Source: Catajapyx aquilonaris
Lineage: Eukaryota
DNA length: 64,000 nt
Assembly (NCBI GenBank): GCA_000934665.2
Contig: JYFJ02001276.1
Coordinates: 1-64,000 of the forward strand
Reading direction: 5' to 3'
Made by a program: the position numbers and the translations under genes. Positions 2,848 through 34,000 of this stretch are shown one piece after another (the stretch's first letter is position 1; each line of letters starts with the position of its first letter). Under the pieces are notes generated by a model. That model saw only the letters and a program-made list of their open reading frames with translations. It made no database searches and was not told the origin of the DNA.

Positions 2848-4215
2848 TATGTAAGCAAGGAAGTTAATGTTGCAGGCATCCCTATTTAAAAAACCAGTTT
2901 TCATAGTGTGCAAACTTTATTTTACAAATCAAGAATTTGTGAAGCAAGCCTCTTGTCCATTTTGGGGGCATGATTGATTACCACACGCCTAAGTTGTTGT
3001 TGTTGTTTTTTTACAATCGTGGGTTAATATTTAAATATGTAGACCTACTAGCAGCGGAGCCCGTTCTTCACACCGGCGATTTCCGCATATGGTAAAGTAA
3101 GCCAGATTTGCCGCAGACCGTAAAATCCTAAATTTAGACTCAAGAAGTGCAGTTTTCGGACTTTTCCCTGAATCAGGAGCACGTAAACCATCAGTGTGCC
3201 AGGGGACCCATTTGAGGATTGAAAAATGAAAGAAGTTTGTAAAGCATGCATATACTGTATAGTGAGCTAAGTCAGAGGGAGTGATGGCTTCGAACATGTC
3301 ACATGAGCAAGACTTGGCGTGGTCTCATCTGCCATCACTCTGCTCCCGAAATAAATACCCGGGGCAAACAGCCTTTCACTTGCATCTACAATGTTTAGCA
3401 GTGGCCTCCGAAGCCGAGAGTTCAGGTTCAATCCAGTGTTTAAGGGTAGGATAAAGGTCCCGGCGCTTATGGAGGTTGACATGTTAAATGTCGGGCCTAA
3501 TAACTCCGTAATTACTGAACAGCATGACATGAAATTTTTGACACAACACGACACAACAACCCTAGCCATGGCTATGTTGAGAGAAACCTGTTGTAGGGAT
3601 TCAGTTAATTATGAAAACCACGAAACTCAGAGGGATTTGAAGGCCTACTGCTCTGAGTAGGTTGCATGCTCAGTGGCCGGGTCCGGATGGTTCAGCAGCC
3701 CCGTAATCGGAACCGATCTCTTCCCCAGAATGTCCTCTTTCTACCTGCCACAGTCTCCGGGCCCAGGGCCGCCCTGGATTCCCAGAAAACCCCCGAAACC
3801 CCGATTTTGTGCTCTGCCCGCGCGTCGCACTCCGGCTTTCATAACCACCTGAGAGTTTTCCAGGGGTTTGTCAGCCTGAACCAACTAGACATAGTCCTAT
3901 ATGTATAGTCCGAAACGTCCCGCATCTCCCTACACAGGTCCCGGGTCCGCCCGCGGGCGCGCACTGTGCTAAAAAAATAGGCAAAAAGGTCGACGAGGAA
4001 GCACAGTTGGATCAAGTTGAAGAAGTCGAGCAGGAGCTCGGCCTAGCGCCAGCTCGCGCGCGTCCCCTCCGAGGTCCGCGCCTCCCATAAAATGCCACTC
4101 GTTAGTGAGTAGGGAATGGCGCTTCATTCCAGATCCAGCAGTCGTTGAGGTAGCATCAGCTCCTGCTCGTCTACTCTTTACCGCTTGACTCCAGTTGTTC
4201 CCGTACACCGCCAAG

Positions 4216-4677
4216 ATGTCCGACGTAGCAGCAGCAGCAGCAGTGCCCCAGGGCACACCCAAGAAGGGGGCCAAGTCCAAGAAGCCGAGGCCAAAGCCCG
4301 ACCATCCCCCCACCTGTGAAATGGTCAACAGCGCCATCAAGAGCCTTAGGGAGCGTCGTGGGTCCTCTCTGCAGGCCATCAAGAAGTACATCGGCTCCAA
4401 CTACAAGGCCGACCCCGAGAAGCTGGCACCCTTCATCAAGAAGTACTTGAGGACCGCTGTCCTGTGCGGCGGTCTGGTCCAGATCAAGGGCAGGGGGGCC
4501 ACCGGCTCATTCAAGATCAACAAGCCGGTCGTGGCCAAGAAGAAGTCTCTAATTCAGGTCGCTGCTGGGGACGCTCGTGAGCCTCCCGCAGGTGGCCATT
4601 TGACCCTGCCTCGTGACCAATGTGCTGTTCCATGTGATGATGAGCGGACTTATCCATCAGGCATGCTCCACAGGTAA
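4216..4677 (+). CDS. Histone H1-like protein (globular winged-helix domain, lacking the long Lys-rich C-tail); probable splice donor after 4673
   Basis: [53 protein letters not shown]...[15 protein letters not shown] is a typical H1 globular domain. H1 similarity stops at ...VVAKKKS. The ORF stop sits inside CAG|GTAACA. Confidence 0.85.
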
Positions 4678-5666
4678 CACAACGAATATTTACGTATTTG
4701 GTCAGTAGGATGGACTATATGTGCCCTTTTACAGACCTTTAGTATATAAAGATGTGAAAACAGGCTCATGGAGGCAAATCTCACAGGAGTACCGACATGG
4801 AAAGGAGTGATTGCGGTTCAAAGTCAAAGTCTTTACCTGTGAGCACAGCCGACGCAAAAATTGCCACAGGAGAAAAATAAGAACAGTACCTGAAACTTTC
4901 CCGACCAGATACTCAAATCTCATTACGATACCGCCATATTTGTGCCCGTCACAGCGAGAGGCAGAAGAGTCAACCTCGCTGCGAGGGCAGGCTTGAGAGG
5001 GCCCACGGTCGTGACGATTTTTCGTACTGTTCTCTTTGCACCGCCTCGCCGATGCGAGTGTCATTGAGGCCACCAATCAACCAGTCTATCAATCCAGAGC
5101 GTATTCACTTTGCTAAAGTAACTAAATTATCCACCTGGGTGATATGTTTCTTCCGGCATTCATAATATATTTGCCTTATTTCAAGCAGTGGTGTTTGGAA
5201 AATAACGTTTGTGGAATATATCATAGATGGACTCGTTCATATGCTACTGAGTACTCTGAACAAGGTAGGCTTAGTGGTTACTTGGTACTACATAACTACA
5301 GTAGACAGATATTCCAAAAATAAAGAGTCGGCACGGCAGAAAGGCTATATGTATCACCACAGCCTTCCACCTTTGAGGTCCCGCGTTCAATCCCCGGATC
5401 ACTTGTCCGCAATAATATTTGGCCGATCACATTACAAGGTAACCTGGGCTTCCTTTCCACTCTTGAATAGTTTCAGTACTCCCTGGAATTCCATGATGCG
5501 ATAGTGCTGAACTTACCGATTCGTCAGCACCTATATGTGTGAGGCATTCGTCTAACAGTGCACTGGGAATTCGTTGCGGTCGGAGATTGACTACGAAACA
5601 AATTAAATATCAGTACAAGTTCGATCGAAGTTTGGCGTTCGGTGGTGTGCATCTACTTGGTGAATC

Positions 5667-5866
5667 ATGGAACTTACAAACTTAAAGTCAATACGCAACA
5701 AGCCCAAATTGGTTCATGACGGCTTTGTCTATCTGAAAAAACAAACCGTCAAGGATAAAACCTACTGGACCTGTGAACGACGGGGACAATGCCTTGCGAA
5801 GGTGCACACTATCGGGGGAGTAGTTGTTGCCGTAGTGGGACAGCACACACATGAAGGTGGAACCAG
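5667..5866 (+). CDS. FLYWCH zinc-finger exon (first coding exon)
   Basis: KPKLVHDGFVYLKKQTVKDKTYWTCERRGQCLAKVHT...GQHTH fits the FLYWCH pattern (F/Y..W.C..C..H.H). In-frame TGA two codons upstream of the ATG; strong donor CAG|GTACGT after 5866 (phase 2). Confidence 0.8.
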
Positions 5867-6637
5867 GTACGTGTACAATGTTGTGTTCACATCTCTTGTA
5901 AGGGTAAAGAGAGGGTGAAAGCATGAAGTGATCAAAACTCCCGATCACTCCATGTAAAAATTTGAATAATGAGTTTTAATAATACGGTGTTTACCAGTTA
6001 ATACACTATATAGAGTTAAACTTCCCATACACGCCCTATTTCCTCTCTTCCTTGTCCCAAGAACAAGTATGGCAGTGGCTCAACATGCATTGTGACATGA
6101 GTTAGAAGCACTTGGCAGGCCCTAATTGGCACAAGTTGAGATGAATATCTTTCACTCGTTTGATAACTGCACCGATGAAATGGCGAAGCTTATTATTAGG
6201 CTTTGTCGTCTGTTTAGTCTAGTTGTTTCAATCACATTAGTCCATATAAACTGATCTGGGTCAGGTTGTAGCACTCAAGGTAGATGCTGTGACGAAGATT
6301 TAATGGATGTTATTCGTTATTGGCAACAATAATTAATAAACAGTGAATGACATCTTTTAAACTCTTTGAACCTTGAGTATAGTGCGAACCCGCCCAAAAA
6401 TAACTTTGTGTTCAGTCATAGTCAGCCAAATAAAAGGCTGCATGTGGAACGTGTTTGACAGTGCCACTAGTAATTCCGGCACGTGCTGTGGGTACATTAC
6501 ATATCTGGTTTATTTGCAAACACGATCGACAATCGTTCCGATCCATTTTGAAATATACATGAGCGATTCTGTGGCCACCATGTGAAGTACTGTAGGAGGA
6601 GGGCCTTGGAAGGACCGGGGGTAGAAAGAGGGCAGCT

Positions 6638-8815
6638 ATGTTTTCTTCAGGTTGTGGACCCGGCGACAAAGCGAGAATGAAGGCAGCCATGAGGCAAGAA
6701 AAAGCCGAGAAACGGCGGATAGATGTGGCCAGAAAGGAGATGTTCATTGATGTGGTTTACCAGCGACCTGCGCTTTGGAAAGTCAAGAGCAGAGAGCACC
6801 GAAACCGTCCACTGGTCAACGCATTATGGGAAGAGGTCGCTGAGATCATGGGGATGTCAAGTAAGTATTGGGAAGGAAACCAGTACCTGGCGGAAGCGGG
6901 ATAAGATAAATATTTTAACAAATGGTTGTAAGCTTACAGAAAAATCGCTAACACTAGAGTATAGACAATTAAGTTGAATACACAATTTCTTTCATGAGGA
7001 CTTCTATTGATGGCTAAGAAAGGACTTGCAAACTAGTTTTAAGACATTTAACTGATGCGGTGTGAAGAGTTATTGCTATGTACCTGCATGCCCTTTTTTA
7101 ACTTGCAGAAATCGAGTGCATCGCAGGATGGAAGAATCTTACTGATGTCTTTCGCCGCAAGTTTTGGGAGGTCCAGAGCGCGCGAAGTGGATCAGGAGAT
7201 GAAGCTGCATCCCGTGTCACTTGGGTTTTCTTTGACCGCTTGCAATTCTTGCGGTACAACTTCGAAAGCACAGCGTCAGTATTCACTTGAACAAAATTGC
7301 TACTCTTCATTCTGTCATTTGTTATGCACAGTAATTCTTATTGAACATTCATAGCAGTGCACTGGCAAACCGATCCACACGCTGATCTGTGTACAATGTG
7401 CAACTGATTCTGTTTGTGTGTCACTACAGTATAATATGGATACCTAAGTTGTAGGCAAATTGTGTACATGCAATCAACCTGTCCATTGCCCAGGCAAAAT
7501 TCATGCCACTTTCACACCAGTGAGCCACTTCATTTTTAGGATAATGCAGCACTACGGCTGGGTTCGTTGTCTTGTGTAATGCAATTGATTTGAGCATGTA
7601 GGTCCATAGAATGTGCATAATCGCAGATTTTCTCTAAATGTTGTTGACTCAAGCTCTAAAATCTATAAGTCAGGTTTCTAAAGTGTTCACAACTAGAGCG
7701 ATCCAAATTATAGAATTTAGCAGGACTGAAATTCTCCACCGTCAAGGGGAACAATAAAGGAAGCACAACATATTGCTAAAATGTTATAATCGAAAAGTAA
7801 TTTATAAAATGGTCATATTGGATTCCTGATTTTATATGATTCTGAACATGTTGAAGTATTTTACTTGCTCTCAAAGTCAACATCAATGATACATCTAGGG
7901 TTAGGCTGATTACAATCTCGTTCTCAATCACTGTGCCTCGATTTTGCAGGCAAACTCGCAAGAATGCTCGAGAAGGAGGAACTTCACAGTCACCCCGTAG
8001 GCAATCGAAGCAACAAGTCGTACCTGGTAACGACCCAGGAGCCAGCACCAGCGGTGCTAACCCAGTCCAGTTGGCCTCCGTAGATGAAACAGCGTCGACA
8101 TCTGCGGGAGAGACGACCTGCCAGTCAACTTCAGGGTTACATCTACACATCATCAAGAGTGAGCCAGTGTTAATGGAAGAAGACGAACCTGCTGTTCATC
8201 TCAGAGACATGGACACCATTGCAAGTACGTTGTTGGACAATTTCTTATGGAATTTGACAGCAACTTCGAAAAGACGTCACCCTGAAGTCCTCATTTCAGT
8301 GGGGATATTAAAGAGCGCTTTGGGTGAAAGAGGATTGGTCAATCTGGAAACCTTAAAGTCTTTGAAACCTGTTTAACTGACTGTATGTAACTTACTTCCA
8401 ACTCTTATAATGTGTTTCAGGTGAAACCTGGGGTGACCCTCTTTCTGAGGAACAGCCTCCTCTGATGCCAGCCACAGTTGCTGAACCTATTTCTCTGAAA
8501 GACGGTTCTGCAACTGAAATGTGTAATAAGGATCAAGTGCTCGGAGAGAAAAACTTTTTCCTCACAAATGCAAATGCGGAAGTGGAAGGAGGTTCCAGTG
8601 AAGGCGAGCTTATACGAGCTGCTCAGTGCATGATTACAGCAACCAGACATTTGACCAATCAATTGGACGAGTGGAGGAAAGAGAACAAGAAATCTCAAGA
8701 CAAGATGGTTCGAATGCAGGAAGAAGCTCTTAAAATGAAGAAAATGGATTTGGAACTACAAGAACGTATCGCTAATGCTCTGGAACAATTGCTAGCTCAG
8801 AGTGCCAAATCATAG
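6638..8815 (+). CDS. MADF (Myb/SANT-like) domain protein with C-terminal coiled coil; exons 6638-6860, 7109-7274, 7950-8224, 8421-8815
   Basis: Spliced translation gives FIDVVYQRPALWKVKSREHRNRPLVNALWEEVAEIMGMS|KIECIAGWKNLTDVFRRKFWEVQSARSGSG...VTWVFFDRLQFL, a MADF pattern. All three introns are GT-AG and phase-compatible (1, 2, 1). AATAAA at 8992. Confidence 0.8.
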
Positions 8816-9038
8816 GACAGTAGTTCTGGTGTTCATGTATGATATTCATTTCACTGTAACTGATGTGATATATATTAAGTGAGCACGGCATTGTTTTTGT
8901 ACTATTTTTTTTATTAAAAAAAGGACGAACACATCACTGACGCCATTGTTTTGTCCTTCTTTGCCCATTACCGGTTGGTTTTGTGCTTAGAAATAAACGA
9001 CAGCTCAGTGTAATATGATTTTTGTGTTTTCATAGACA

Positions 9039-9103
9039 TTGGGGTGGCATTTTCGTTCCACTGCTCTTAACAGTAACTAGCAGTGGGACTAAAATTCCAC
9101 CCA
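9039..9103. repeat. Short inverted repeat (hairpin or tiny MITE remnant)
   Basis: gggtggcattttcgttccactgct ... agcagtgggactaaaattccaccc. Confidence 0.5.
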
Positions 9104-9455
9104 TAATCCTTATAGAGTCGTATTCAGTTATGTTTCTTTATAATCGATGAGCAACTCACATATTTGACGGGCCTTGATCATGGAACCGTTTTATTTTCCC
9201 ACTATCGTTGTGGCATTTTCCTCCCCGTTTCCGATCGGTTTTGGGTTTACTTGAAATTCTGGCGGGTTCTATAAGCTATTAGAATTCAATCATTTCGATG
9301 TACTGTACAGTACATGCGGACGTTGAAGTTTGTTCATGCTGCACCTTTCACCTTTTCTTCCGGCTGGAATTTACCCGACAGATTTTTTTGTATACAGTGT
9401 CGTCAGCCATTGAGACCAGGAACCACGGCCGAGGAGTGTTTGTATAATTATATGG

Positions 9456-9612
9456 CAGGATGAAGGGAAACTCGCGGACAATCGCCAGGTAAACTTATAG
9501 TACTCGCAAAACTAATATAGGGATAGGTATAGTGTGGAGGGCCGGATGGTAAAATACTAGGTAAAAACGACAAAGTGCACGGGTGTCGTACCTGGATTAT
9601 TACTCTGACGGC
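9456..9612 (-). mobile_element. Partial second copy of the 2407-2847 MITE family
   Basis: caggatgaagggaaactcgcggacaatcgccaggt matches the TIR; 9540-9610 is the reverse complement of about 2640-2710. Confidence 0.75.
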
Positions 9613-10049
9613 AATTGTTAAAAATTATTCCTGCAAAATGTATGCAGCAATGTATGGGAGACAAGCTCGAGGCAAAGAGGGCAGTGATCGCTTACTACCC
9701 GAAAGGAATCATAAAAATGCGTGGTCCCTTCTTGTAGGGGAAAAGACCCTTCCGAACCCTTTAGAAAGCGGGATACAACCTGCCGGCCTTGTCGGTTTTC
9801 AAACAGCTATCGGAATCCATCCCCAAAGTAGAAACAAGTGACAGTCTGGAACCGGCGCGTAATATTGGGCGCACAATTCGTAGCGGAAGGCGGTGCGTAA
9901 TGTGGTGCGTAAAGTGACGCGTAGTGCGGTGCGTAATCGATGAATCTTATCGTTTATGGTGCTAATGCGTAATGCGATGAGATATTTCCCCCTTTTTAGC
10001 ACCATAAGGGAGAGGGAAGAAAGCTGGAAGAGGTATTTTCTTTATCCCC

Positions 10050-10243
10050 ATGGGAAACAAGAAAAAGTGGGTTCGAAGACAGAAGAGAATTATACCCCCT
10101 CAGAAGCGTAAACGGAAGGTCATACCACGTGAGAATGAATCGGCGACTGCTGGGTCTAATTCTGGGCCCTGTGACTTGTCGCTCGAACACGGATTGTTCC
10201 CACCGTCAACTGTCTCACCTGAAGGATTTCAAGTGAATGAATG
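10050..10243 (+). CDS. Candidate first coding exon with basic, NLS-like segments
   Basis: MGNKKKWVRRQKRIIPPQKRKRKVIP...VNEW ends at a strong donor ATG|GTAAGA (phase 2). No recognisable domain. Confidence 0.5.
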
Positions 10244-11143
10244 GTAAGAAATATGCCATAAAAGTACCACGTTCAGTTGCAAAAGGGGGGCAAAAATCCA
10301 ACCGAGTTTGATCTTAGATAATGTAAGTTGTGGGAAGAAAATATGACTGTAGAAAATTCATTCCATCATCACAATATTCGTATGAAAGCGGCGTTCGTTC
10401 TTCTACGTACTACTAGTAACTATATAGTTACTGCTAACTTAGCAGTACTGGTACCATTGCACTACACTGGTACTGCTAAGTAAGTTAGAAGTAACTAGTA
10501 CTATGATGAATATCCATCCATTGTTTTCAGAAAGGAGAATTTACGAGCAGTAAATTGGAAATTGCTTGAGAAAGACCTGTGCCCTATGGCACAGCTTAAA
10601 TCAATTGGTGAAGGTCTTACCTGCGCTTGACTCGTTTCAGTGCTACTTTCCTTCCACCACGGAGGTCTTACTACCCTTTTTTCACTGAAGGGAATGTTTT
10701 TGCTCTGATTATATTCTGTATGGCGTATGCGATGGCTTTTTTTCGCACGCATATTCCCGGCAGCAATGATTTGTACATATACAGGGTGTTCCAAGTACGG
10801 TACCTGTACCAAAATAATAAGGCCCACGCCCAGGCCCCAATAAGGCCCAGTATTGATATCTCTGTTAATTTGCGGTCGTAACGCAAGATGGCATCCAGAC
10901 GGTCGATTATGCATCAAAAAGTGGGTACAGTTCGGTAGAGGGCACGCTCGTGCAGGACACATCGGTCCATGAATTTAGCCAGTCATTGTCCAGAGGCCAT
11001 AGAAACAGCTGCGTTGTAATTTTGGCCGCTGAGAAAAGCCTGGATACGAGACAAGTGCGACGTGCTACGCCTGTGTAATGGTACCTACAGACACCTGAGC
11101 GACTGAGGATAGCTATCATAGTGGCACAGAGGATTAAAACATT

Positions 11144-12187
11144 GGGTCATTCCATCTCAATTCAGTAAATTTTCTGAAACGTTGTGGCTCGACCCCTTCC
11201 GATTTAACTGAAAAAAATCATGTAGGTAGGGATCCGTACCTTATTGCGAAATCCTAAAGTAGAGGCCGCTGGAATCAAATCTCACGGAGATATAACAATG
11301 GAAAGTTCAACAATGACATCCATGTAAAGTATTTTTAACTGTTCAGACTGTTCTCCCAACATCAACATGTCACATATCAAATGGAAGGTAATGGAGAGAG
11401 GAATGACAGGGTTGCAAAATATTCGACCTAACTCGAAAAACGACGTCGAAAAAAAATCGCACGTATAATTATGTCCAAATCACTCTATATTCCCGATAGC
11501 CGTAACTCATAACATTATTATGATTTAACAAAGTGATATTTAGGATACAGGGCAATCACCTTTGCCTAAATCCTCACGGGTCAAGAATGGTTTATACATT
11601 TCTGAATAGGGGATGATCCAAGGAATCCATTGACACACCAACACTCATAATTGGTTCAGCCCCACCTGGAGCAATTTGAGCTCGAAAATAGGAGAAATGG
11701 GGTGATTCATATTTTTGAGCTTTTTTATTTCCAACCCTGCGTGACCTATCACAATGAGGTTTTGCGTGTGCATTTAGGCAAAGGTGATTGCCCTGTATCC
11801 TAAATATGACTTTGTTAAAATCATGATGCTATGAGTTACGGCTATGGGGAATATAGAGTGATTCGGACATACTATACGTGCGAATTTTATTCGACGTCGT
11901 TTTTCGAGTTAGGTCGAATATTTTGTAACCAAGTTATTCATCTCTGCATTACCTTACACTTGATATGCGACATGTTGGTGTTGGGAGAACAGTCTGAGCA
12001 GTTAAAAATGCTTTACATGGACGTCATTGTGGCATTTTCCATTGCTATATCTCCGTGAGATTTGACACCAGTGGCCTCAATTTTATGATTTCGCAATAAG
12101 GCACGAATCCCTACCTGCATGATTATTTTCAGTTAAATCGTAAGGGGTCGAGCCACCACCATTTAGAGAACTGACACGGAATGACCC
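11144..12187. mobile_element. Non-autonomous foldback DNA transposon with ~430-bp TIRs (GGGTCATTCC termini, possibly Sola2-like)
   Basis: 11144 to about 11575 is the reverse complement, with scattered mismatches, of about 11765-12187. No clear TSD seen. Superfamily call is tentative. Confidence 0.85.
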
Positions 12188-12398
12188 AGCTTCCTTCATG
12201 TAATTCAGGTCACCTGCTGAATGGCTCCTGCGTTCCTAATAAGGCCCAGTCAACATCGTGGTGGACCTTATTAGGTACAACTGCACATACAACCATCCTT
12301 GAGTGGGAATAGTGACACAGTAGGTAATGTAATCCCTGTAAGAACTCTATCATGGCTAGAACGTGTGTGAGGAACAACTCTATTTTATTAGGGAAGGA

Positions 12399-13859
12399 AT
12401 GGCCACTGCAAACATAGATCGGCAGAAGCAGCGCCGTGCGCAATGGACAGAAGAAAATCTGCAGAGCGCCTTGAATGCGATCCGGCGTGGGAAAGTAAGC
12501 CAACGAGAGGCGCAGGCACGTTTTGGAATCCCTAGGAGGACACTCAGAAACCATATAAAGAGTGACAAGGAATCACGGAAGCTAGGTCGAAGCCCACTGT
12601 TGTCATTCGAACAGGAAGAGGATTTAAAAGCACGCCTTTTTCGACTATCTGAAATTGGAATTCCTCTTACTAGAAAAGTGCTGCAGCACTCAGTGCACCG
12701 ATGCTGCAAATTAAACGGGATAGCACACACCTTCAATCTCGAAAAAGGGTGTGCAGGGAGAAAATGGCTGAAACTTTTCATGAACAGGCATCCGGACGTG
12801 GTGGTCAGGAAAGATCAGCTGATGAATCAGGCGCGAGCTCAGAAATTGAATCGTCACATTGTAAATGACTACTTTCAAACACTTAGGCGAACTTTAGAAG
12901 ACATGCAAGTGACAACCAGACCCGAAAAAATCTTCAATATGGACGAGAAAGGCTGTCGATTGACTGTCCACCATCAGCAAAATGTGTCTTCACGCAAGGG
13001 AGCGAAGCGTGTTCATCTCATTGCAAACGAACACACTGAGAATGTCACGATCGTAGCTTGCGCAAGCGCGGTAGGCACAGTTATCCCGCCAATGGTGATA
13101 TTCAAAGGCACCCGGATGAAACCTGAGTATGAGGACAACTTGCCGCCAGGCTCAGCCGTGGCTATGAGCGCGAAAGGATCGATGACTACAGATATTTTCC
13201 TGGTGTGGCTGGATCATCTCGCAAGGTTCAAACCCGCTGGTCCAATCCTTCTCATCTTCGATGGTGCTTCGTGTCATCTGGACTACGACATTGTAGAACG
13301 AGCAGAAGAACATGAGATAAAATTACTGTGCTTGCCTAGTAATACGACCCATGAATTACACCCATTTGACAAGAGTGTCTTCAAATCTTTCGAGAGCTCC
13401 TGGGACGAGGAGGTTCTAAGATTCTGGGACACACATCCGGATCAAATGCTAACAAAGACCAGATTTGGCACCATGTTTACCCGAGTGTGGGGCAAGGCGC
13501 TTACATCGGACAACGTGATCAGTGGCTTCCGTGCAACTGGCATCTACCCTTTTGACCCCTCAGTTATTCCCGATGAAGCTTTCGCACCCAGCGTGCTTAC
13601 ACAGACTGACAAACCTCACCTTGCTGAGGAACGAGCAGGTAGCCCAGCAACCAGCCCTGCATCTGTCAATGCAGCTAGTCCTGAAAATGAAGTTCCATCA
13701 GAGGATGAAGCTGATATGGCCTCAGTGACACCTGAATCAGCGGACAGTGCCATCCTTGATTCACCTGATCATGGCTCCCAGCAAAATAAGTCCAAGTATA
13801 TATTAGTCCTTTTAGTTGTAGGAAATTTTGCTCCAATCTGTTATTTTTGTGTAGCTTGA
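12399..13859 (+). mobile_element. pogo-superfamily DD35D transposase ORF (psq-type HTH + CENP-B-type HTH + DDE_1)
   Basis: WTEENLQSALNAIRRGKVSQREAQARFGIPRRTL (HTH_psq); AGRKWLKLFMNRHP (CENP-B HTH); catalytic NMDEKG, IFDGASCH and HPFDKSVF with 35 residues between the last two Asp. ORF is uninterrupted. Confidence 0.92.
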
Positions 13860-13982
13860 TGCGCTCCTATCCAGGTGCCCTATTCTATAGCCACTGCTAC
13901 ATTCGACCACGTAATATAATGGGGCACCTGGATTGGGGCGCAACAAGATGCACAAAAATAACTACTCTGGATCCTGATGAAT

Positions 13983-14540
13983 CCGCTGAATCCGGATATA
14001 GCAGACTTAAAGGGACCTCAGAAAAAGTCTTTTATAACCGAGGTTTGTTATAGCCTAATCGCCACTTTAGCAACGAATACACAATATTTTCATATTTCCG
14101 TAATTATGCTTATAATGCACACTACTGAATGCGGTACCGTACAGATTGAAACTATCCACAAAAATGCGAAATTAGCTCATCAGTAATATAAGGAAGGACC
14201 AAAAAAAAACCGTAATTTTTCTCCTACTTCTTGCCAAATATACCAGAAAAAGAATAATTTTGATCTTTTCATCAAGTGTCAGATCAGTGACAGATGCGAA
14301 AATCACCTCTCCAATGTGCAGTGCTTTCCTCCCTTGGGAAAGGAAGCTGAGTAATCAAAAAGAGCACATTTTCCCACCGAGCGGCCAAAAAAATTGTCTG
14401 TTACACCGAGGTGAGGTGAAAATGAGTCTGTTATATCAGGAGTGAAAATGGCGCCTTATGGATGTTTGCTGGGACAGGTTTCGAGTCTGTTATATCCGAA
14501 AATCCGTTATACCCGAGGCTGTTATATTTCTGATTGAACT

Positions 14541-14541
<1 letters not shown>
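13983..14541. mobile_element. Tigger/pogo-like MITE, long degenerate copy of the CAGTTGAATCCGGATATAAC family
   Basis: ctgaatccggatatagcagacttaaaggga at the left end and gttatacccgaggctgttatatttctgattgaactg|ta at the right end; same family as 26394-26493 and 54684-54833. Confidence 0.7.

Positions 14542-14619
<78 letters not shown>
14542..14619. repeat. (TAT)n microsatellite
   Basis: About 26 perfect TAT units starting at the TA flank of the MITE. Confidence 0.97.
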
Positions 14620-15754
14620 GCAGCCGTCGATACGGACGCGGACGTAAGGCTGAAGCCGCACCAGCCAATTGTGATCAAGAAGCTCCTGTTCCTAATAATT
14701 CTGTGTAAGTAAAGGAATATCGAGGGGGGGGGGGGGGAGAGAGAAGCTGCTGNGAAGCTGCTGTCAGGCACCCTGGTTAGTGATTTAACATCTACGTACT
14801 GTAATTAATTATGAACGCAGTACTTGTGATACAACACCACCTGATGCCACGTCTAATAAGGGCACGTCCTTGTCCTCGCCGCAATATTACAATGATCATG
14901 CCGTATGCAACATTCTTGTGATTTTTAATGATCCATAAAGTATAACGAAACATTTAAGTGCAAAAATAATAACATAAACTATGGCAAGTGCTTGGGCTTA
15001 CGATCCAGCCTGCGCCATACAACACTAATAAAATATTTCCATGGGAATCATCATTATGTCTGGAGTCATTCGGGAGAGCACCACTCCTCCACACTTCACC
15101 CCTTATACCATTAGGCCTACCTTTTTAAATCGCGGCGTCTGAGAATAAATAAAATAAAATAAAATAAAATATCCGGAAACAATATCTCGGACTAATATCA
15201 TATTCCGGGGCCCACGGGCTTAATTACTGACTCTCCCTGAATTACATATCAGCAATGGTATGGCGTATGGGTAAATTACGGTATATGGCAATAAAGCCTC
15301 GGGTGCTCGTATCCTGGCGCTATGCGACCATCAGAACCAATAAAGTGGTAGGTAACTTATGTCAAACCACCTTCATCATGGTAGAGAGTTCTGATGGTGT
15401 TATATGAGACTTTGATTAGTGCCAGTGGATAAAGTGAGAAACGGTGGCAGGTTCTATGTTCTATCTGCTATGTCTTGCTATTGTATGCTCTAGAACACCA
15501 CATTTCAAATGTTGGGGACACGGCTCGAATTGCGTGCTTTCATCATGATTAAATTTTGTACTTCAACTTGGGCAATTCATTATGTTCAACGTAAAGGAGA
15601 AACAACATCCGGATTTTAATGGACATAAAAAACAATCCGTATAAATCCACATAAATCTGATGTGCACCGCAAGTGTTGTTTCTCCTTTGGTCGAACAGCC
15701 TCTAGCTTGGATTTTGCACCCTCTGAAACTCTCGTGTCTCGACTATAATTTCAG

Positions 15755-16792
15755 GCAACGGAAGAAGAAGGCTCAGGAAACCGGCGAGACTCCGAAATGG
15801 CGCTTTTGGCAGCCGATGCAACAAATCATGTCAGGCTGCGATCCCGGAGCCAGTACCAGCGGTGTCCATCATCCCACCCACCCAGCTGAACCAGCGTCAA
15901 CATCTGCTGGGGAGATGTCCGGCGAGTCAAATCAACAAGGATTGTACCCGTACATCGTCAAGGTGGAACCTCCAGCAACGGAGGAAGAAGAACCTGTTCT
16001 TCAACAGCAACGTGGATTCGAGGGTATGTTACACGAAATACACTGGGCCTATTGAAATGTTCGGAATGATTAGCTATATTTTCCCGGAATAAGCTGCTTA
16101 AGAAGCTGTCACTTTTGAACGATTACTTCTAACGACATCACTACTATTTTAAAGCTAAATACATTTTAAGAGCTTCTGCCTTTGGTGAATAAATACTGAT
16201 ATCTTCAATGTCTTCACGCCAAATTGGGAAGTGGATGACATGTGGAGGATTGCAGCTGTGTATGCGTAAGTTGAACTGCTGCCTCAATAAATTGTGTATT
16301 TCAGAGACTTGGGGTGAACCCCTTGGTCAGGAACATCATGCTCCGTCCAAGTTTGCGGAATCGCATCTTTTGGAAGAAAGTGTTACTCCGGACGAAAATG
16401 GTGAGGTGGGTGAGGATATGCCGGAGGCTGATGATGAAGAATATGGTGCAGATGTATTGTTCCAAGCTGCCCAGTGCATGGTGAAAGCGTCCAAGGACTT
16501 GTCACACAAAATGAGCCAGTGGCAGGAAGACAGCAAGAAATCACAAGACCGTTTGGTGCGATTACAGGAAGAAGCCCTAGAAATGAAAAAGAAGGACTTG
16601 CGGTTACAGGAGGAGGCTCTCGAAATGAAGAAAAAAGACTTGCGGATGCAGGAAGAAGCCCTGGAAATGAAGAAAAAAGACTTGCAGCTTCAGTTTCGCA
16701 TCGCGAATGCTCTGGAAAAGCTGCTTCCAGCACGCAGCGCCGAAACGAGAGATGAATCTCAAATGGTGTCTCTTAGTCCTATCAGTCCATAA
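15755..16792 (+). CDS. Paralog of the last two exons of the MADF gene; exons 15755-16023 and 16305-16792, upstream exons uncertain
   Basis: Shares DPGASTSG, ASTSAGE, I.K.EP...EE.EP, ETWG.PL, AAQCM, KKSQD..VR.QEEAL.MKK.DL and RIANALE.LL with 7950-8815, and has the same intron phases. Starts with KWRFWQPMQQIM, resembling the end of a Myb/SANT-like domain. AATAAA at 16906. Confidence 0.8.
16559..16684 (+). repeat. Coding tandem repeat, 3 x 42 bp (R[L/M]QEEALEMKKKDL)
   Basis: Three units at 16559, 16601 and 16643. Confidence 0.95.
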
Positions 16793-18184
16793 AGTGATGC
16801 GTAGTATTAAGAAGTGAGTATTGAACTCCTATCCAGATTTGTACACCAGTTATTTAGGGAGAAGAAAATACTGTTCGTGGAATTCTCAGTTTGGACTTTG
16901 GTGGCAATAAAAAGTGGATTGACATTGTGCGCCATGGGTATTACTCACTCAGTCAATAAGAAAGGTACATTTTGACAAGAGCACTGCTGATATCCTGGAG
17001 ATTGTGTGGGGAAGCTGAGTCCAAAAATAGACCCTGCGCACAATTCCCAAAACAGGGAAGAGAGTGCTTTCTGGTGGTTGGCTGGCTGCACATGCATACA
17101 GGTGGGTTGGGTGCAAGCACGTGGTCCTCAGTGTAATAGATCGATATCTCTCCTTCGGGCCTTTCCATAAATTTGACCATTCCGCCCCAAAAAATTTAAC
17201 CAGATTAAAAATAATCGGTTGAATTATTTGATTGAAATAAGTACAAGAAAATATGGAAATAGTTTCACACTTTCTGTAATTGTCTGCGATCTTGAAATGT
17301 GATTTCAAATCTTATTTCACACATCTAAGGCACTTGATTAAATCCGGTAATAACTTGCAATCCGGAATTCCTGAATCCGGTGGTTATTTCGATAAGCGAA
17401 ATTAAATTTCCAAGAAACGACCCGTCAGTTCCACAGAGTGTTGGGCTGTAGGCAGTTCCTAACGGTGACGTAATCAACCCCAGGTCGTTTGATTGGTGGC
17501 CCGTAATACCCATTGCAAGGGAGACTCCCAAATCTCCGAAGACCCATCTACACTGCATCTGCATCCTGTCGGAATACCACCACGTTCCTCAAAAGGTCCT
17601 GGTGATACATGGTTTTTCAGATGGTGCCGAGTAGTGTTTTGATGGCCTTCATATTCCAGCTATTTCCCAATAGCACGAAACGCGCCTGGCCTGCAGAAAA
17701 GGTAAGGGCACGCTTCAACAGGTTGCTGCGACGCATTATCCTTTATTTTAACGAGGGTTTTTATTTTGTCGCAGTCTGTGTTTCTTAGAGAAATGTGACG
17801 CTGTTTTCGTATGGCACCTGCTTTTTGGTGCATTCTAACAGGTGATGTCTAAATTAATTTACGAGTTTCGGGAATGTAGATTCGCAACTAGGCCAATTAC
17901 CAATTATGGTTTATCATGTACTACTGAAAGTATGCCAAAATATTTCGTAGCATGTGGACAGTTTAATTAAGCCATTCGTGGCCAACTATGATTTTTTTTG
18001 CATGAGAAGTAGGTTGTTTGTTTACTTACGTATAGATGTATAGGTGGTGCAAGTGAACTGAGTGTGTGGGATGATATTATGTTTATTGCATGTAATAAAT
18101 TCTTAAATTTATTGGCGCATATGCGTGTGTTTGGGCTACATTTTGCGGATGTTCATCATTAACTATCCCATTTGCACTGCTGTA

Positions 18185-25213: not shown

Positions 25214-27357
25214 ATGGAGTTCCCAGATCTAGGAAAGCACTGCTCTGAGCCTACGTGCCACCAGCTAGGTACTGTACATTGCATCATTACACAGGTCCAG
25301 ATGGTCTCATTACCAGAGAGAGCAAGGGGAATAAGTTTCTGCCATGGTGACTTAATTTAACCAGTAATGACTCAAATAATTGGCATTTACAATACATCAC
25401 ATGGTAATGGCCAAACTTCCGCTGCAATCTCACGGACCATGTTAAGCGATGTTGCGTTGCTGATGGTGAATGCGTCTTGTTTCAGATTTCTTGCCGCTCA
25501 AGTGCGACGCATGCGGATCCATTTTCTGGTAACTATCACTTCTAGCACTTGCAATAACATGCATTCATAAGCACTGTTAAGCATATTTAGGACATTATCT
25601 GGCTGGGATTGTACTCACTATTTGTTGCTGGTTAATTTTTGTGAACAATTAATAATAATGAGCATAATCCGGCCAGGTTTGTTGTACTGAGTTTGGTCCC
25701 TGCCCAACGGTGAATTTTCGCCTTCAGTTGGCACTTGTGACCAAGCAAGTTTTTTGAAGCACTTCAACAAGTGCTATGAAATTTTGCATCTATTTATGCA
25801 GTTGTTGACAATCAGGGCAGCCACACCCAACTAGGACAAGCATGATAAGAGATAACCTGGCTCGAATCAATATATTGTGCTCGAGGTGCTCATTGTTTCA
25901 GATAAGAGTGACTTACAGGAAATGTTGCAATGCTTGCAGGACAATGGAGTAGATTCATAGTTGCACCCCTCTTTGTATGATTTAACAATATCCCAACAGC
26001 AAATGCGTAAGGTGCTGACAGTCAGCCTAATGAAATAATATTTATCCTACAAGTAATATTTTGTTCCTAAAAGACATGCTAATGGTTCTAGCATGTCCAA
26101 AGTAGTCATTAATCTAATTATGTAGGCCCAGGAATGATGCAACATGTATCTTTTCATCCTCATCACTACAAGAGGATTTTATCAAAAAAATTACACTATA
26201 TCACACAGCAAAGTTTTGTAACAAAATGAAAATTGGAGTAAGCTTTCCCCAATTAGCTTCAAGACCAAACAGTAAATTGGGGAAATTATGTTGTGTCTTT
26301 GTGGTAAGATGATTTCTCTTTTGAGTAGAAAAATTGCTGTGTCATTCACAGGTGCCAATGAGTTCAAGTAAATAGAAAGTTTGTAACTTATTACAGTTGA
26401 ATCCGGATATAACAAACTTAAAGGGAACCCAGAAATAAGTTTTTTATAACCAAGATGTGTTATAGCCGAGGCTGTTATATCCGGATTCAACTGTATTAGC
26501 AGAACTCCTATTGACACTTTCTTTTGATATTCTCAGTTGTTTTGCATTCGCTCTAATCTAAGTGAACAGCGTAATGCGTGTGAGATTGCAATTTGGGTCT
26601 TGTTAAACTATTTGCAGCAGTGACCATTTTGGCTACACATCACACCAGTGCCCCAACTCTTACTTGAAGGATGCCCAGGTTCCTGTGTGTCCTCTTTGCA
26701 ACAAACCCGTCCCAACCCCACGTGGGCAGCCACCAGATGTCCATGTGGGACAGCACATTGACAATGACTGCCAGTCTGATTCAGCAAAGTCAAGGCGAAA
26801 GGTGTGTGACTGTATATTTTTGTACTGGAGTTCCATAGATTACTGTACCTTCATTTCTCTGTTGAATAGGTGTTCAAGAACCGATGCACTGCAAAAGGAT
26901 GCAAAGTGAAGGAGTTGATGCCAGTGACATGCAATGACTGTGGACGCAACTTCTGCCTACGTCACCGCCACCCTCAAGATCACAGCTGCTCTGGGCCAGT
27001 CACTCCAGCCCAAAGGGCAAGGGATGCTGCTATGGCAAGGACTTCTGGGAGCAAGGCTGTTCCCGCACCTGCACAAGCGAGCATGGTAAATTATTTGACT
27101 ATAATATTCCTCCTTGAATTATGTTGAACTGTTTTATGTGACCTGCACTTATTTAGCGTGAAGATGAAGCATTGGCTCGTGCCTTGCAAGCATCACTTCA
27201 GGACAGCGCCCCTCCTGCTTCTACATCACGGACACAGCAAGAAGAGGAAGACTTCATGTTGGCCCAAGCTCTGGCCCAGAGTGAGTTGGAAGCTCGCAGG
27301 GCTAACCAACCAGCTGCTGCCCCTGCTCGGGACAAAGATCGATGCTGCCTCTGCTAA
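25214..27357 (+). CDS. ZFAND2B: AN1-type zinc finger protein 2B / AIRAPL-like (AN1 fingers, UIMs, C-terminal CaaX-like motif); exons 25214-25268, 25486-25528, 26618-26801, 26870-27085, 27157-27357
   Basis: MEFPDLGKHCSEPTCHQLDFLPLKCDACGSIFCSDH..., VPVCPLCNKPVP, CNDCGRNFCLRHRHPQDHSC, UIM-like EDEALARALQASL and EEEDFMLAQALAQSE; ends CCLC. Confidence 0.9.
26394..26493. mobile_element. 100-bp Tigger/pogo-like MITE with perfect 20-bp TIRs and TA flanks (intronic)
   Basis: ta|cagttgaatccggatataac ... gttatatccggattcaactg|ta. Confidence 0.9.
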
Positions 27358-31082: not shown

Positions 31083-34000
31083 TCACAATGGCCTGGGGTC
31101 ATGCAACCCCTTGACATTTGGCTCCACAGTGGGCCAGTGCTCCGTGTCACTTGGCCCCCAATCGTGGAGCCCACTGACTAAGGAGGGCCGGTGAGTCAGT
31201 CGGTGAGCTATGGAGAACCCGCCACTGCCCTCCAGCTGAGTCAACACAATTATCACTTGTCTGTCAAGGGAAAAGGATGCGAAAATTAACACCAGGTTCA
31301 ACCTTTAACGTTTTAAGCACAGCGAGGTCCTCACCTGTGAAGAGGTGGTACAGCATCAACAGTCCTGAGCTCACCCCTGGTGGAGACAACGTTGTAGCTC
31401 TCCTGACAATCACATTTGACTTGAATCCACCGATCCTCATGTCGGTTTTCAACGACCACCACAAGGCCAGCCCAACCTTTGGTCAAGTAGTAGGCTGTCA
31501 TGCCTTCTCTGCCCTAAAATGCAAATGTATTGGCTTTAGTAGGTGGCACTTGTGATGCGATTAGTATCCCCAAGGGACATGCTCCAAATCCCTGTTATTG
31601 CTCTTTGCATTGTTAACATGAGTACGTTACTTGTTACCTGTAAGTTATTTTGTACGACTACACACAGAAGAATTCTAGACATCGAATTTTTCAATTATTT
31701 TAGACAATCAATATGATCGCATAATTTACAAGGTAAGGAAATTGCATTAGTCTCCCTATTAGCCAGACTATAATACATAACCATCCGTCAAACTGGGTCA
31801 GTAAGAGATGATCGACAGATACAAAAGTAGAACATTGAATGAAGGTTATGAGAGCAAATAAAAATTTTATGGACATACCTCATGTCTTTGTCCTTTGTCC
31901 AATGTGAGGCGGATGATTGCATCAGCCAGAATGTAAGGCGATGGCACCAGCTGCTCAGCCAGCAGTCGTTTAGAGCTGTGAAGTGCCAGGATGTACTCTG
32001 GGTATTGTGCAGGGCTGTCCAGACCTGCAGAATAAAAGGCAGTTTTAAAAAAATTCAGCGGCTGTGCTCAAATTATTCACTATGATAAAATCGGGTCATA
32101 TGGCTTATCATGCAGACTATGAAGCAACTTTTTACCTGTGTGCCAGTGATTGAAGGCGAGTGGCACAACAAGGTACATCCCAGGCTCCAGCATCTTGTGG
32201 CATCCAACAAACCCCCGAACCTGTCGCTTGCTGTGCTCGACCAGTCTTCCCACAGATAGGGAACCCAGCTGTGCCTTGCGAAACACCACCACACACAAGT
32301 CCAGTTGAGATCTAGGATGAATGAAGATTACAGTCACTCATCATGTGGTGAAAGACCATGCAATGTCCTTTTTCCCTTACCTGTGTGCCTTCTCTGAGTT
32401 GCGCTGTCCCTCTTGGAAAAGAGTGACTTCAACCTCAGTGGGCTCCAGCACGGTCAGCAGTACACACGAAAGGTGGTCAGCAGATGCCAGCGGGGGCAGC
32501 ATCCCCTGCAGCCGCATTTCATTCCAGTTTGGCCTCACCTTACAAATGTCAATACAGTCAAAGAATCGGAGCACATCCTCGAAAGCAATCCAAAAGACTC
32601 CATCCCTAGCCCCATGAGGCATCAGTCTTGCTCGCAAATTAGGGGTCCAGTTGGGAGACTCATCACTCCAATCTCCTTTCCATGAGTAGCGGCCCCAGGG
32701 GTTGCGGAGCCGCAAAAGGCGATTACCACTGACGTCTTGCACATCTAGGACCGAATAGGCATGGCGAGGGCGCAGACCCCAGGTGCGGTACTCTTCGTCA
32801 TCAACCTTCATGTTGCCCCCACCACATGATGCACCCATTAAAAAGCCAGCCGTGTGTGAGCTTAGAAGCTGTGCCCACACCAAGTCCCTGTCGAGTTCTT
32901 CCTCACTTGGGGCTGAACTTGGTTGTAATGGGATGCTCTCACATGGTGCCCCAGTGAGGGTCGCCAGTCCCTCAATGGCCCGTCCTGACACCAATGCCTC
33001 ATAACAGCCATGCATCTTGGCCACTGCCTTTTCTATAAGAGGAACCCAGAGTTGGCGTCGCTTGGCCTGGCTGTACACAAGCCGATGGCGACGATCACAC
33101 GGGAGGAGATCATCCAAGAGCACCGTGGTCCACCGGCCATCCTTGCACAAACGCACCTGGTATGCCCCCTGTGGACACACTTCACGAGTCACCATGACCT
33201 GTTCCACAAGTGGCTTGCGTTCTGCCAATACTGCCAAAGCTGACAGAAGCCAGCAGTTTCCTAGTACTCCCTGTGAGATGTCTGACGGCAGAGGAGTACG
33301 GAATACAGCCCAGGGCAAGCCACCGTCACCCTCAGCAACCACTTGTTGTGGTCGCACCCAGTGTGCAACGTGGCTCTCCCTTGGCCCACCCTCATTTGAT
33401 TGGTAAAATAGGGAGCGACGTGCTGGTGGGAAACTGTCATCCACAAATGGTTCCCCAGTCTTCTGACAGTACTGCACTATTCGCTCCCATTTCTGGCGTG
33501 CCTCACGTTCCTCAGCACGCCTCAGTTCATCCATCAATTCACTTCGACGTCCTGTCATTGTGGGTAGAGGTGGTGGTGGCATTGGAGGAGGGGCCACAGC
33601 TGGCTCTGTGACCAGCCCTGTTGACGGGGATGAAGTTGACATCTGCATTGCTGGAGGAGTAGCTGGCATTGGGAGCAATGAAGAGTGTGGGCGTCGTGGA
33701 TGGCGACATATATCACACTGTGTGGCAGAGCCTGCATTGTCGTAAGTGCACTGAGGGCAGTTCCAGTTATGGCCCTGGCCAGCACCACGACGCAATGAGG
33801 GTCTGCTGGTGAGGAGGTCCACTAGGGCAGCGCCAGTTGAACCGGGACTTAAACCCAGAGCAGTGGCAGCTGACACAATGTCAGAAGTTGTGATGCGGCC
33901 CACTGATACGCCTCCACCATTTCCTCCACCCCTCTCACCACTTCTGGTTGCACCTCGTTCAGAAACCCCACCTCTCTCAGGCATCCCACCTCTTTCAGGC

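Follow-up and report, generated by a model that had tools for sequence, protein, structure and literature searches.

The stretch of Catajapyx aquilonaris DNA analysed here (the window) comprises 64,000 nucleotides (nt; GenBank assembly GCA_000934665.2, contig JYFJ02001276.1, positions 1 to 64,000 of the forward strand), and our subject is the locus between 4216 and 16792, in which coding segments for unrelated DNA- and chromatin-binding domains lie upstream of two copies of a 3′ module, hereafter tail 1 and tail 2. The arrangement is real and non-random. Two exons encoding a MADF domain appear to form a gene together with tail 1, and tail 2 is an old, constrained paralogue of that tail. Besides the MADF pair, four further 5′ segments precede one or both tails, namely an H1 segment, a FLYWCH segment, a short basic exon and a pogo transposase; all five of these heads are intact, begin with an ATG, lie on the + strand and run up to a phase-2 donor that matches the phase-2 acceptors of the tails. 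We tentatively favour the reading in which the tails receive different heads, and give it a little less than an even chance.

The MADF gene and the two tails

A first-pass annotation of this DNA had assigned the H1, FLYWCH, split MADF and pogo transposase domains, and Pfam places each of them at the coordinates given there. Its phase-2 donors at 4673, 5866, 7274, 10243 and 13795 were correct in both string and phase when checked by hand on the sequence, as were the phase-2 acceptors of both tails at 7950 and 15755. Donor scores throughout derive from a splice-donor matrix. The exons of the MADF gene and of tail 2 are as follows, with a slash at each exon boundary.

6638–6860, + strand: MADF exon 1; in-frame ATGs at 6638 (first) and 6677 (second); donor CAA/GTAAGT, phase 1, score 5.3
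7109–7274, + strand: MADF exon 2; acceptor TTTTTTAACTTGCAG/A, phase 1; donor AGC/GTCAGT, phase 2; stop of the open reading frame (ORF) at 7288–7290
7950–8224, + strand: tail 1 exon 1; acceptor GATTTTGCAG/G, phase 2; donor CAA/GTACGT, phase 1
8421–8815, + strand: tail 1 exon 2; ETWGDPL, acidic disordered stretch and ~70-residue helix; stop TAG at 8813–8815
15755–16023, + strand: tail 2 exon 1; acceptor TATAATTTCAG/G, phase 2; donor GAG/GGTATGT, phase 1, exon end 16023
16305–16792, + strand: tail 2 exon 2; TWGEPL, acidic stretch and helix; stop TAA at 16790–16792; AATAAA at 16906

The MADF domain is divided between its two exons. Profile positions 1–42 match within 6596–6904 (7.3e-07) and positions 44–84 within 7102–7290 (2.2e-04; 21.9 bits, with the cut-off at 22, for half a domain), and the two halves abut at profile position 42/44 across a phase-1 GTAAGT...CAG intron, the first of the gene. 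Tail 1 exon 1 contains no ATG ahead of its conserved part and thus needs an upstream exon. Joined to the MADF pair, tail 1 completes a unit of four exons spanning 6638–8815, with 1056 nt or 352 codons. Polyadenylation signals follow its stop at distances of 98 nt (ATTAAA, 8913) and 177 nt (AATAAA, 8992), and the signal of tail 2 lies within the same 98–177 nt range of its own stop.

That the two tail modules are paralogous, as the annotation had proposed, is borne out by amino-acid identities of 46% in exon 1 and 38–50% in exon 2. Nucleotide similarity between the tails is confined to the exons, and both retain the internal phase-1 intron (8224/8421 and 16023/16305). The conserved elements, in order, are DPGASTSG, ASTSAGE, an I/V-K-x-E-P motif with acidic residues (IKSEP and an acidic run in tail 1, VKVEPP and an acidic run in tail 2), TWG(D/E)PL, a further acidic region and, at the end, the helix. 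K-x-E-P agrees with the consensus of a putative SUMO/synergy-control site. The proportions of nonsynonymous and synonymous differences (pN/pS) between the tails are 0.33/0.60 and 0.31/0.69, with pN ranging over 0.21–0.33, pS over 0.60–0.72 and the rate ratio dN/dS over ~0.1–0.36. Because synonymous sites are saturated and pN is low, the tail duplication must be old, with purifying selection on both copies.

No MADF remnant was found near tail 2, nor is there a second copy of the MADF, H1 or FLYWCH domain anywhere in the window. Constrained as it is with no MADF domain nearby, tail 2 needs a head other than MADF, unless it is reached from MADF exon 2.

AlphaFold2, given the alignment of the two tail sequences, models residues 1–56 of tail 1 exon 2 with a predicted local distance difference test (pLDDT) score <50 and a helix at residues 59–129 with pLDDT >90. 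This predicted helix may oligomerize. In tail 2 it holds an in-frame 3 × 42-nt triplication (16557–16682) of a 14-residue unit, LQEEALEMKKKDLR, the copies being 81–83% identical, whereas tail 1 has the 42-nt unit once.

Relatives of the tails were sought in several ways. None of the four tail segments, nor the basic exon, matches a Pfam family above cut-off, and a word search for longer proteins yielded no scoring homologue among 393 candidates. An exhaustive search of a tail profile against 1.84 billion representatives returned six matches, which fell in multiple stretches of repetitive or unrelated proteins and were judged spurious (the check covered 6/6 with Pfam and 2/6 with BLASTP). Two metagenome scans gave 582 and 213 pattern matches, of which none was confirmed, and a profile search against the PDB reached an E-value of 0.1 at best. 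In a protein atlas, the look-alikes of the tail are Myb/SANT-like and trihelix clusters (0.82–0.92); this is only a lead, but such a placement would suit a MADF partner.

Candidate heads upstream of the tails

The remaining heads, and two repeat elements that lie among them, are listed below.

4216–4673, + strand: H1 head exon; ATG at 4216; donor CAG/GTAACA, phase 2, overlapping the TAA at 4675–4677
5667–5866, + strand: FLYWCH head exon; ATG at 5667, one codon past an in-frame TGA; donor CAG/GTACGT, phase 2
10050–10243, + strand: basic exon; ATG at 10050; 64 codons with abundant lysine and arginine; donor ATG/GTAAGA, phase 2, score 4.9, overlapping a TAA
12392–13795, + strand: pogo/Tigger-type transposase segment; acceptor TTTTATTAG/G, phase 2; candidate donor CAA/GTATAT, phase 2
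11143–12188, unstranded: foldback element resembling a miniature inverted-repeat transposable element (MITE), between the basic exon and pogo, inside the putative intron; ~436-nt arms, 87% identical, around a ~186-nt centre
13838–13966, unstranded: hairpin MITE-like insertion of 129 nt, an inverted repeat that covers the last 7 pogo codons

The H1 head carries the complete globular winged-helix GH1 domain (Pfam Linker_histone, 9.5e-25 in 4189–4677, profile positions 1–74 of 74). Its first ~105 residues, comprising the N-terminal tail and the globular domain, are 65–78% identical to canonical arthropod H1 (108 matches among 283 candidates, with query coverage of at most 75%). Homology to H1 stops past GSFKINK and is followed by 40 non-H1 codons from about 4546; near 4545 the codon style of the exon also shifts from GC-ending to T-ending. 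No match to the 3′ stem-loop of replication-dependent histone genes was found at E ≤ 1 in 3000–18000. Because the homology ends after ~105 residues and the stem-loop is absent, this head is not a canonical histone gene but the 5′ part of an H1 gene, extended by 40 new codons. We also considered a frameshifted canonical H1 and rejected it, since no lysine-rich frame that could encode the C-terminal domain lies downstream. The ORF has an in-frame stop upstream and no credible acceptor, and its donor scores 3.05, the next best in the region reaching 0.59.

The FLYWCH domain is likewise complete (Pfam, 1.6e-14 in 5664–5918, profile positions 3–62 of 62), with the C..C..H.H ligands in place when their spacing is compared with the consensus. 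Its donor is situated three codons past the end of the domain and 17 codons before the ORF stop at 5916–5918, and scores 5.28 against 2.14 for the next best in the region. No credible acceptor precedes it. Polyadenylation signals are absent within 417–642 nt of the H1 and FLYWCH stops. From their sequence, the two segments resemble 5′ exons suited to splicing in the phase of the tails.

The annotation had regarded FLYWCH and MADF as alternative rather than consecutive exons, and we agree, because neither is preceded by a credible in-phase acceptor. The acceptors ahead of MADF are, as it had noted, out of phase with the FLYWCH donor (6596, phase 0; 6651, phase 1), and the six phase-2 AGs before the MADF domain show a pyrimidine content of just 0.18–0.35, without a pyrimidine tract. 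A single protein with H1, FLYWCH and MADF as successive exons was rejected for want of an in-phase acceptor with such a tract. Downstream of the heads, the only credible in-phase acceptors are 7950, 12392 and 15755.

Two heads lie between the tails. The basic exon looks like a nuclear localization signal and is a candidate first exon for tail 2 (together 948 nt, 316 codons), for the pogo exon or for both. The pogo ORF (12360–13859) matches DDE_1 (2.3e-19), HTH_psq (1.3e-11) and, weakly, the Tc5 helix-turn-helix (HTH) in Pfam. Its ATG at 12399 is just 7 nt downstream of the acceptor, and the frame continues to the TGA at 13857–13859, staying open for 486 codons though the DNA 3′ of it is full of insertions. 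By eye, NMDEKG, LIFDGA and HPFDKS, the motifs with the catalytic acidic positions, line up with those of homologues. Relatives number 419, the best at 60% identity; they are widespread in insects and also occur in a tunicate. Full-length relatives measure 575–707 residues, their C-terminal end bearing a conserved ..INYKAQ.. motif and a PHD finger; the ORF here is without this C-terminal third, and no remnant of the motif or the finger was found downstream of it in the window.

Pogo/Tigger elements have terminal inverted repeats with a TA duplication. The candidate ends of the present copy are an 11–12-nt inverted match, ATGTAATTCAGG, at 12198–12209 versus 15236–15247 (E 0.028), with a TA on one side only. 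In Rfam, the hairpin at 13838–13966 resembles plant miRNA families of MITE origin, though below threshold (35 bits at best, the gathering score being 80). A long (TAT)n microsatellite (14545–14620), a poly-G run (14725–14740) and a single N at 14753, possibly an assembly gap, separate the pogo ORF from tail 2. Short dispersed repeats with 81–87% identity (13987–14055, 14484–14546 and 26398–26498) occur in the pogo 3′ flank and in an intergenic region. In addition, a palindromic MITE-like repeat at 2404–2850 and a partial second copy at 9456–9617 flank the block from H1 to tail 1, probably by coincidence.

Chance and competing explanations

The donors were compared with those of 334 stop-to-stop ORFs of at least 60 codons from elsewhere in the window, on both strands; since this control set includes real exons, the resulting percentages are upper bounds. 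A phase-2 donor as good as that of H1 (≥3.05) occurs within the last 20 codons of 15 controls (4.5%), and one as good as that of FLYWCH (≥5.28) in 5 (1.5%). If independent, the two would both qualify by chance with a probability of roughly 7e-4. Donor quality at H1 and FLYWCH is non-random. For H1, the evidence resides in the quality of the donor and not in its phase, which is forced, as discussed below. A terminal donor at the level of the basic exon (≥4.9) is found in 6 controls (1.8%), and as the 6.9 kb that separate the tails hold about ten ORFs on the + strand, we estimate the probability of one such donor arising there by chance at roughly 17%, so the basic exon is not significant alone. 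No other donor that follows the H1, FLYWCH or basic ORF scores as high as the one in phase 2. The phase of tail 2, in turn, is inherited from tail 1.

In the reading that we favour, the tails are tandem paralogues, both of them old, of a nuclear-protein module restricted to its lineage; a conserved phase-2 acceptor leads into each, and tail 1 forms the 3′ half of the four-exon MADF gene. The DNA upstream has gathered further intact, ATG-started 5′ exons with phase-2 donors (the truncated H1, FLYWCH, the basic exon and the truncated pogo), which most likely makes the locus an exon-shuffling hot spot, and the pogo part may have arrived by ‘transposase capture’, a route already known. Through a choice of promoters or of splice sites, different DNA- or chromatin-binding heads would then come to share one effector or oligomerization tail. 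Each head presumably has its own promoter, and the use of any junction beyond that of MADF with tail 1 is likewise presumed. A far-reaching version, which we consider unlikely, is a combinatorial locus that mirrors mod(mdg4), in which promoter choice and splicing join at least three unrelated heads (the H1 winged helix, the FLYWCH finger, MADF and the whole pogo) to either tail and so give up to about ten nuclear proteins from 13 kb, the H1 globular domain acting as a targeting head in an animal protein akin to a transcription factor.

The regions in front of the heads were inspected for promoter features. The observed/expected ratio of CpG is locally high (0.9–1.47) before each head ATG (3751–4250, 5501–5750, 6501–6750 and 9751–10000), as measured in noisy 250-nt windows, whereas much of the locus is depleted (0.26–0.7); the pattern hints at mosaic DNA methylation in this genome. 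These CpG peaks, and the missing polyadenylation signals after H1 and FLYWCH, speak slightly for alternative heads. A core-promoter scan with insect motifs detected no combination of initiator and downstream promoter element, only scattered single motifs.

Several observations weigh against a sharing of tails by alternative heads. The MADF exon 2 donor is itself weak (−2.25), and the sole alternative, GCG/GTACAA at 7253, also in phase 2, scores −3.06. The pogo donor had been called weak from the outset, in agreement with its score of −1.06, and the best donor there is in phase 1, so that a fusion of the basic exon and the transposase ending at the transposase stop appears more credible than a three-part protein (2352 nt, 784 codons), for which the frame is kept across 10243>12392 and 13795>15755. 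The putative donors of H1 and of the basic exon each have a GT that overlaps the TAA of the ORF (..G/GTAA..); phase 2 is therefore automatic there and no independent coincidence, and these sites may simply be stops. The FLYWCH donor could come from its source gene, in which case its phase match is a 1-in-3 event. Two strong acceptors, at 7108 (MADF exon 2) and 6650, do not fit the frame of the H1 and FLYWCH donors, and reading the H1/FLYWCH frame through the MADF acceptors leads to a stop within ~31 codons; read-through transcripts would tend to include MADF exon 2 or the 6650 acceptor and terminate early. No 7–10-mer is common to three or four of the four 400-nt regions upstream of the heads, and docking/selector complementarities between introns are at chance level. 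Codon-usage log-odds, trained on neighbouring genes, fail to separate the doubtful exons (0.07–0.10 per codon) from random ORFs (median 0.018, 75th percentile 0.068), but because the real FLYWCH domain scores only 0.069 this measure is uninformative. Finally, the tail appears to be an orphan module, with no detectable relative in the word, profile, metagenome and PDB searches. The earlier proposal of alternative heads on a common tail is thus supported in part, by the intact heads, the phases, the quality of the donors, the constraint on a tail 2 that has no MADF nearby and the confidently predicted tail helix, whereas the weak MADF and pogo donors, the competing acceptors and the absence of a shared promoter element tell against it.

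If the additional junctions are not real, the locus reduces to an ordinary MADF gene and a paralogue in transposon-rich DNA. Spelled out, this explanation, which is quite possible if doubtful, supposes two ordinary genes, MADF with tail 1 and a single head (probably the basic exon) with tail 2, surrounded by debris: H1 would be a dead truncated duplicate, FLYWCH the leftover first exon of a Mutator-like element (MULE) or a dead gene, and pogo an intronic copy minus its 3′ end, the phases being in part forced and in part coincidental. The surroundings are indeed rich in transposable elements, with MITEs at 2404–2850, 9456–9617, 11143–12188 and 13838–13966 and repeat fragments at 13987–14546, and the possible terminal inverted repeats described above would frame a pogo copy of ~3 kb. 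Donors that double as stops at H1 and the basic exon, the weakness of the pogo donor and the lack of a promoter motif shared by the heads are all as expected of debris, and excerpts of PMC10027918 and PMC1702500 describe FLYWCH as Mutator-derived. However, neither a MULE nor any other transposase domain lies near FLYWCH, and both H1 and FLYWCH are fully intact, keeping their ATG and domain residues, with end donors that are uncommon in the controls (≤4.5% and 1.5%) and that both match the tail phase. The long open frame of pogo amid insertion-riddled 3′ DNA is also hard to reconcile with decay.

Two further explanations dispense with part of the heads. In one, a single gene has two alternative 3′ cassettes, and MADF exon 2 splices to tail 2 (7274>15755) with tail 1 skipped, the basic exon and pogo being intronic and noncoding. 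Both sites are in phase 2, tail 2 is constrained with no MADF remnant nearby, and the basic exon is indistinct from a chance ORF statistically and by composition. Yet transcription would have to run 7 kb beyond the tail 1 stop and its closely following polyadenylation signals, and the donor of the supposedly noncoding basic exon is the second best of the locus (ATG/GTAAGA, 4.9), which leads us to regard this gene structure as improbable. In the other, to which we give slightly less credence still, H1 (153 residues) and FLYWCH (83 residues) are small stand-alone genes unrelated to the tails, ending at their own stops and encoding miniature chromatin proteins. Both ORFs do have an ATG and a stop, and proteins of 79–92 residues with FLYWCH alone form clusters in the protein atlas, from rotifers and arthropods, a lead only, as such short clusters may be single-exon gene calls. 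Against independent genes stand the lack of polyadenylation signals over the 417–642 nt past the two stops and the consensus donor three codons beyond the FLYWCH domain.

The window is animal nuclear DNA, and ORFs near the locus specify a transporter of the SLC6 type (SNF, 2.3e-57), a calpain that carries RanBP2 zinc fingers (Peptidase_C2, 5.2e-82), a methyltransferase, a protein with a PH domain and a dynein heavy chain (AAA_6, 3.4e-134). Pfam detected no other domain in 109 further ORFs at 3–18 kb, nor in 51 ORFs of the flanks. For the H1 and pogo segments, the best relatives belong to insects and other arthropods. The calpain ORF (32377–35016, − strand) is a single frame of 879 codons; its three RanBP2-type zinc fingers and the tandem repeat PERGGM give it a domain content like that of calpain-15/SOLH. 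At the start of the window, an ORF of 228 codons (2–688, + strand), open at the window edge and without a Pfam family above cut-off, resembles by eye the end of a retroelement ORF.

Comparison with known loci

The protocadherin and UGT1A loci use clustered alternative first exons on constant 3′ exons; their variable exons are paralogous to each other, and those of protocadherin carry a conserved promoter element. The likeness to these loci drawn in the first-pass annotation extends to the several phase-compatible 5′ exons, each with an ATG and a donor and without an acceptor, that precede shared 3′ exons. It does not extend to the heads themselves, which are not mutual paralogues as the variable exons of those loci are: they belong to four unrelated Pfam families and share no upstream motif, and MADF spans two exons, the second of which has its own acceptor. 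Compared with canonical H1, the H1 head has the same N-terminal tail and globular domain at 65–78% identity to the arthropod proteins, but in place of the lysine-rich C-terminal domain and the stem-loop it has 40 unrelated codons and an end resembling a splice donor.

A constant part combined with variable DNA-binding exons that include FLYWCH is also known from mod(mdg4) and lola of insects. At mod(mdg4), according to PMC4667647, the BTB exon at the 5′ end is constant and the FLYWCH exons at the 3′ end vary, the two often being joined in trans. The polarity in the present locus is reversed, as the annotation had stated, in that FLYWCH ends in a donor and lacks an acceptor; BTB domains are absent from 3–18 kb.

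Two protein families offer parallels for the tail. MADF-BESS proteins of insects similarly combine an N-terminal MADF domain with a C-terminal protein-interaction module (PMC10573801, in excerpt), whereas the tail here is an orphan module, in none of whose segments Pfam finds a BESS motif at E ≤ 0.1. The Single-Myb-Histone/TRB proteins of plants, as outlined in part of PMC10167121, comprise Myb/SANT-like, H1/H5 globular and C-terminal long-helix (coiled-coil) modules reminiscent of those seen here. Going by the same partial source, however, they are plant-specific and carry all three modules in one polypeptide, whereas H1 and MADF cannot be joined in frame in our locus and the tail has no detected homology. 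If the H1 head is joined to a tail, the locus would provide an animal case of an H1 globular domain outside a linker histone, parallel to these plant proteins.

The closest precedent for the pogo segment is the fusion of host genes to captured transposases. The tetrapod survey of Cosby et al. (bioRxiv 10.1101/2020.05.07.082677) reports that 8/9 captured transposases use an acceptor just upstream of the ATG. The similarities are a transposase ORF in a putative host intron on the same strand, an acceptor directly before the ATG and in frame with the upstream exon, and a retained HTH. The present candidate differs in that the whole DDE domain is kept rather than the DNA-binding part alone, the onward donor is weak and the host is arthropod-like. 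If correct, the alternative-head reading would carry transposase capture beyond single fusions, to a locus with several heads, and beyond vertebrates, to an arthropod-like genome. It would also reveal exon shuffling in progress, the alternative 5′ exons being part of a histone, two fingers that derive from transposons and a transposase that is almost complete. The locus would in this way extend exon shuffling, transposase capture and alternative first exons in a new form, with a polarity reversed relative to mod(mdg4).

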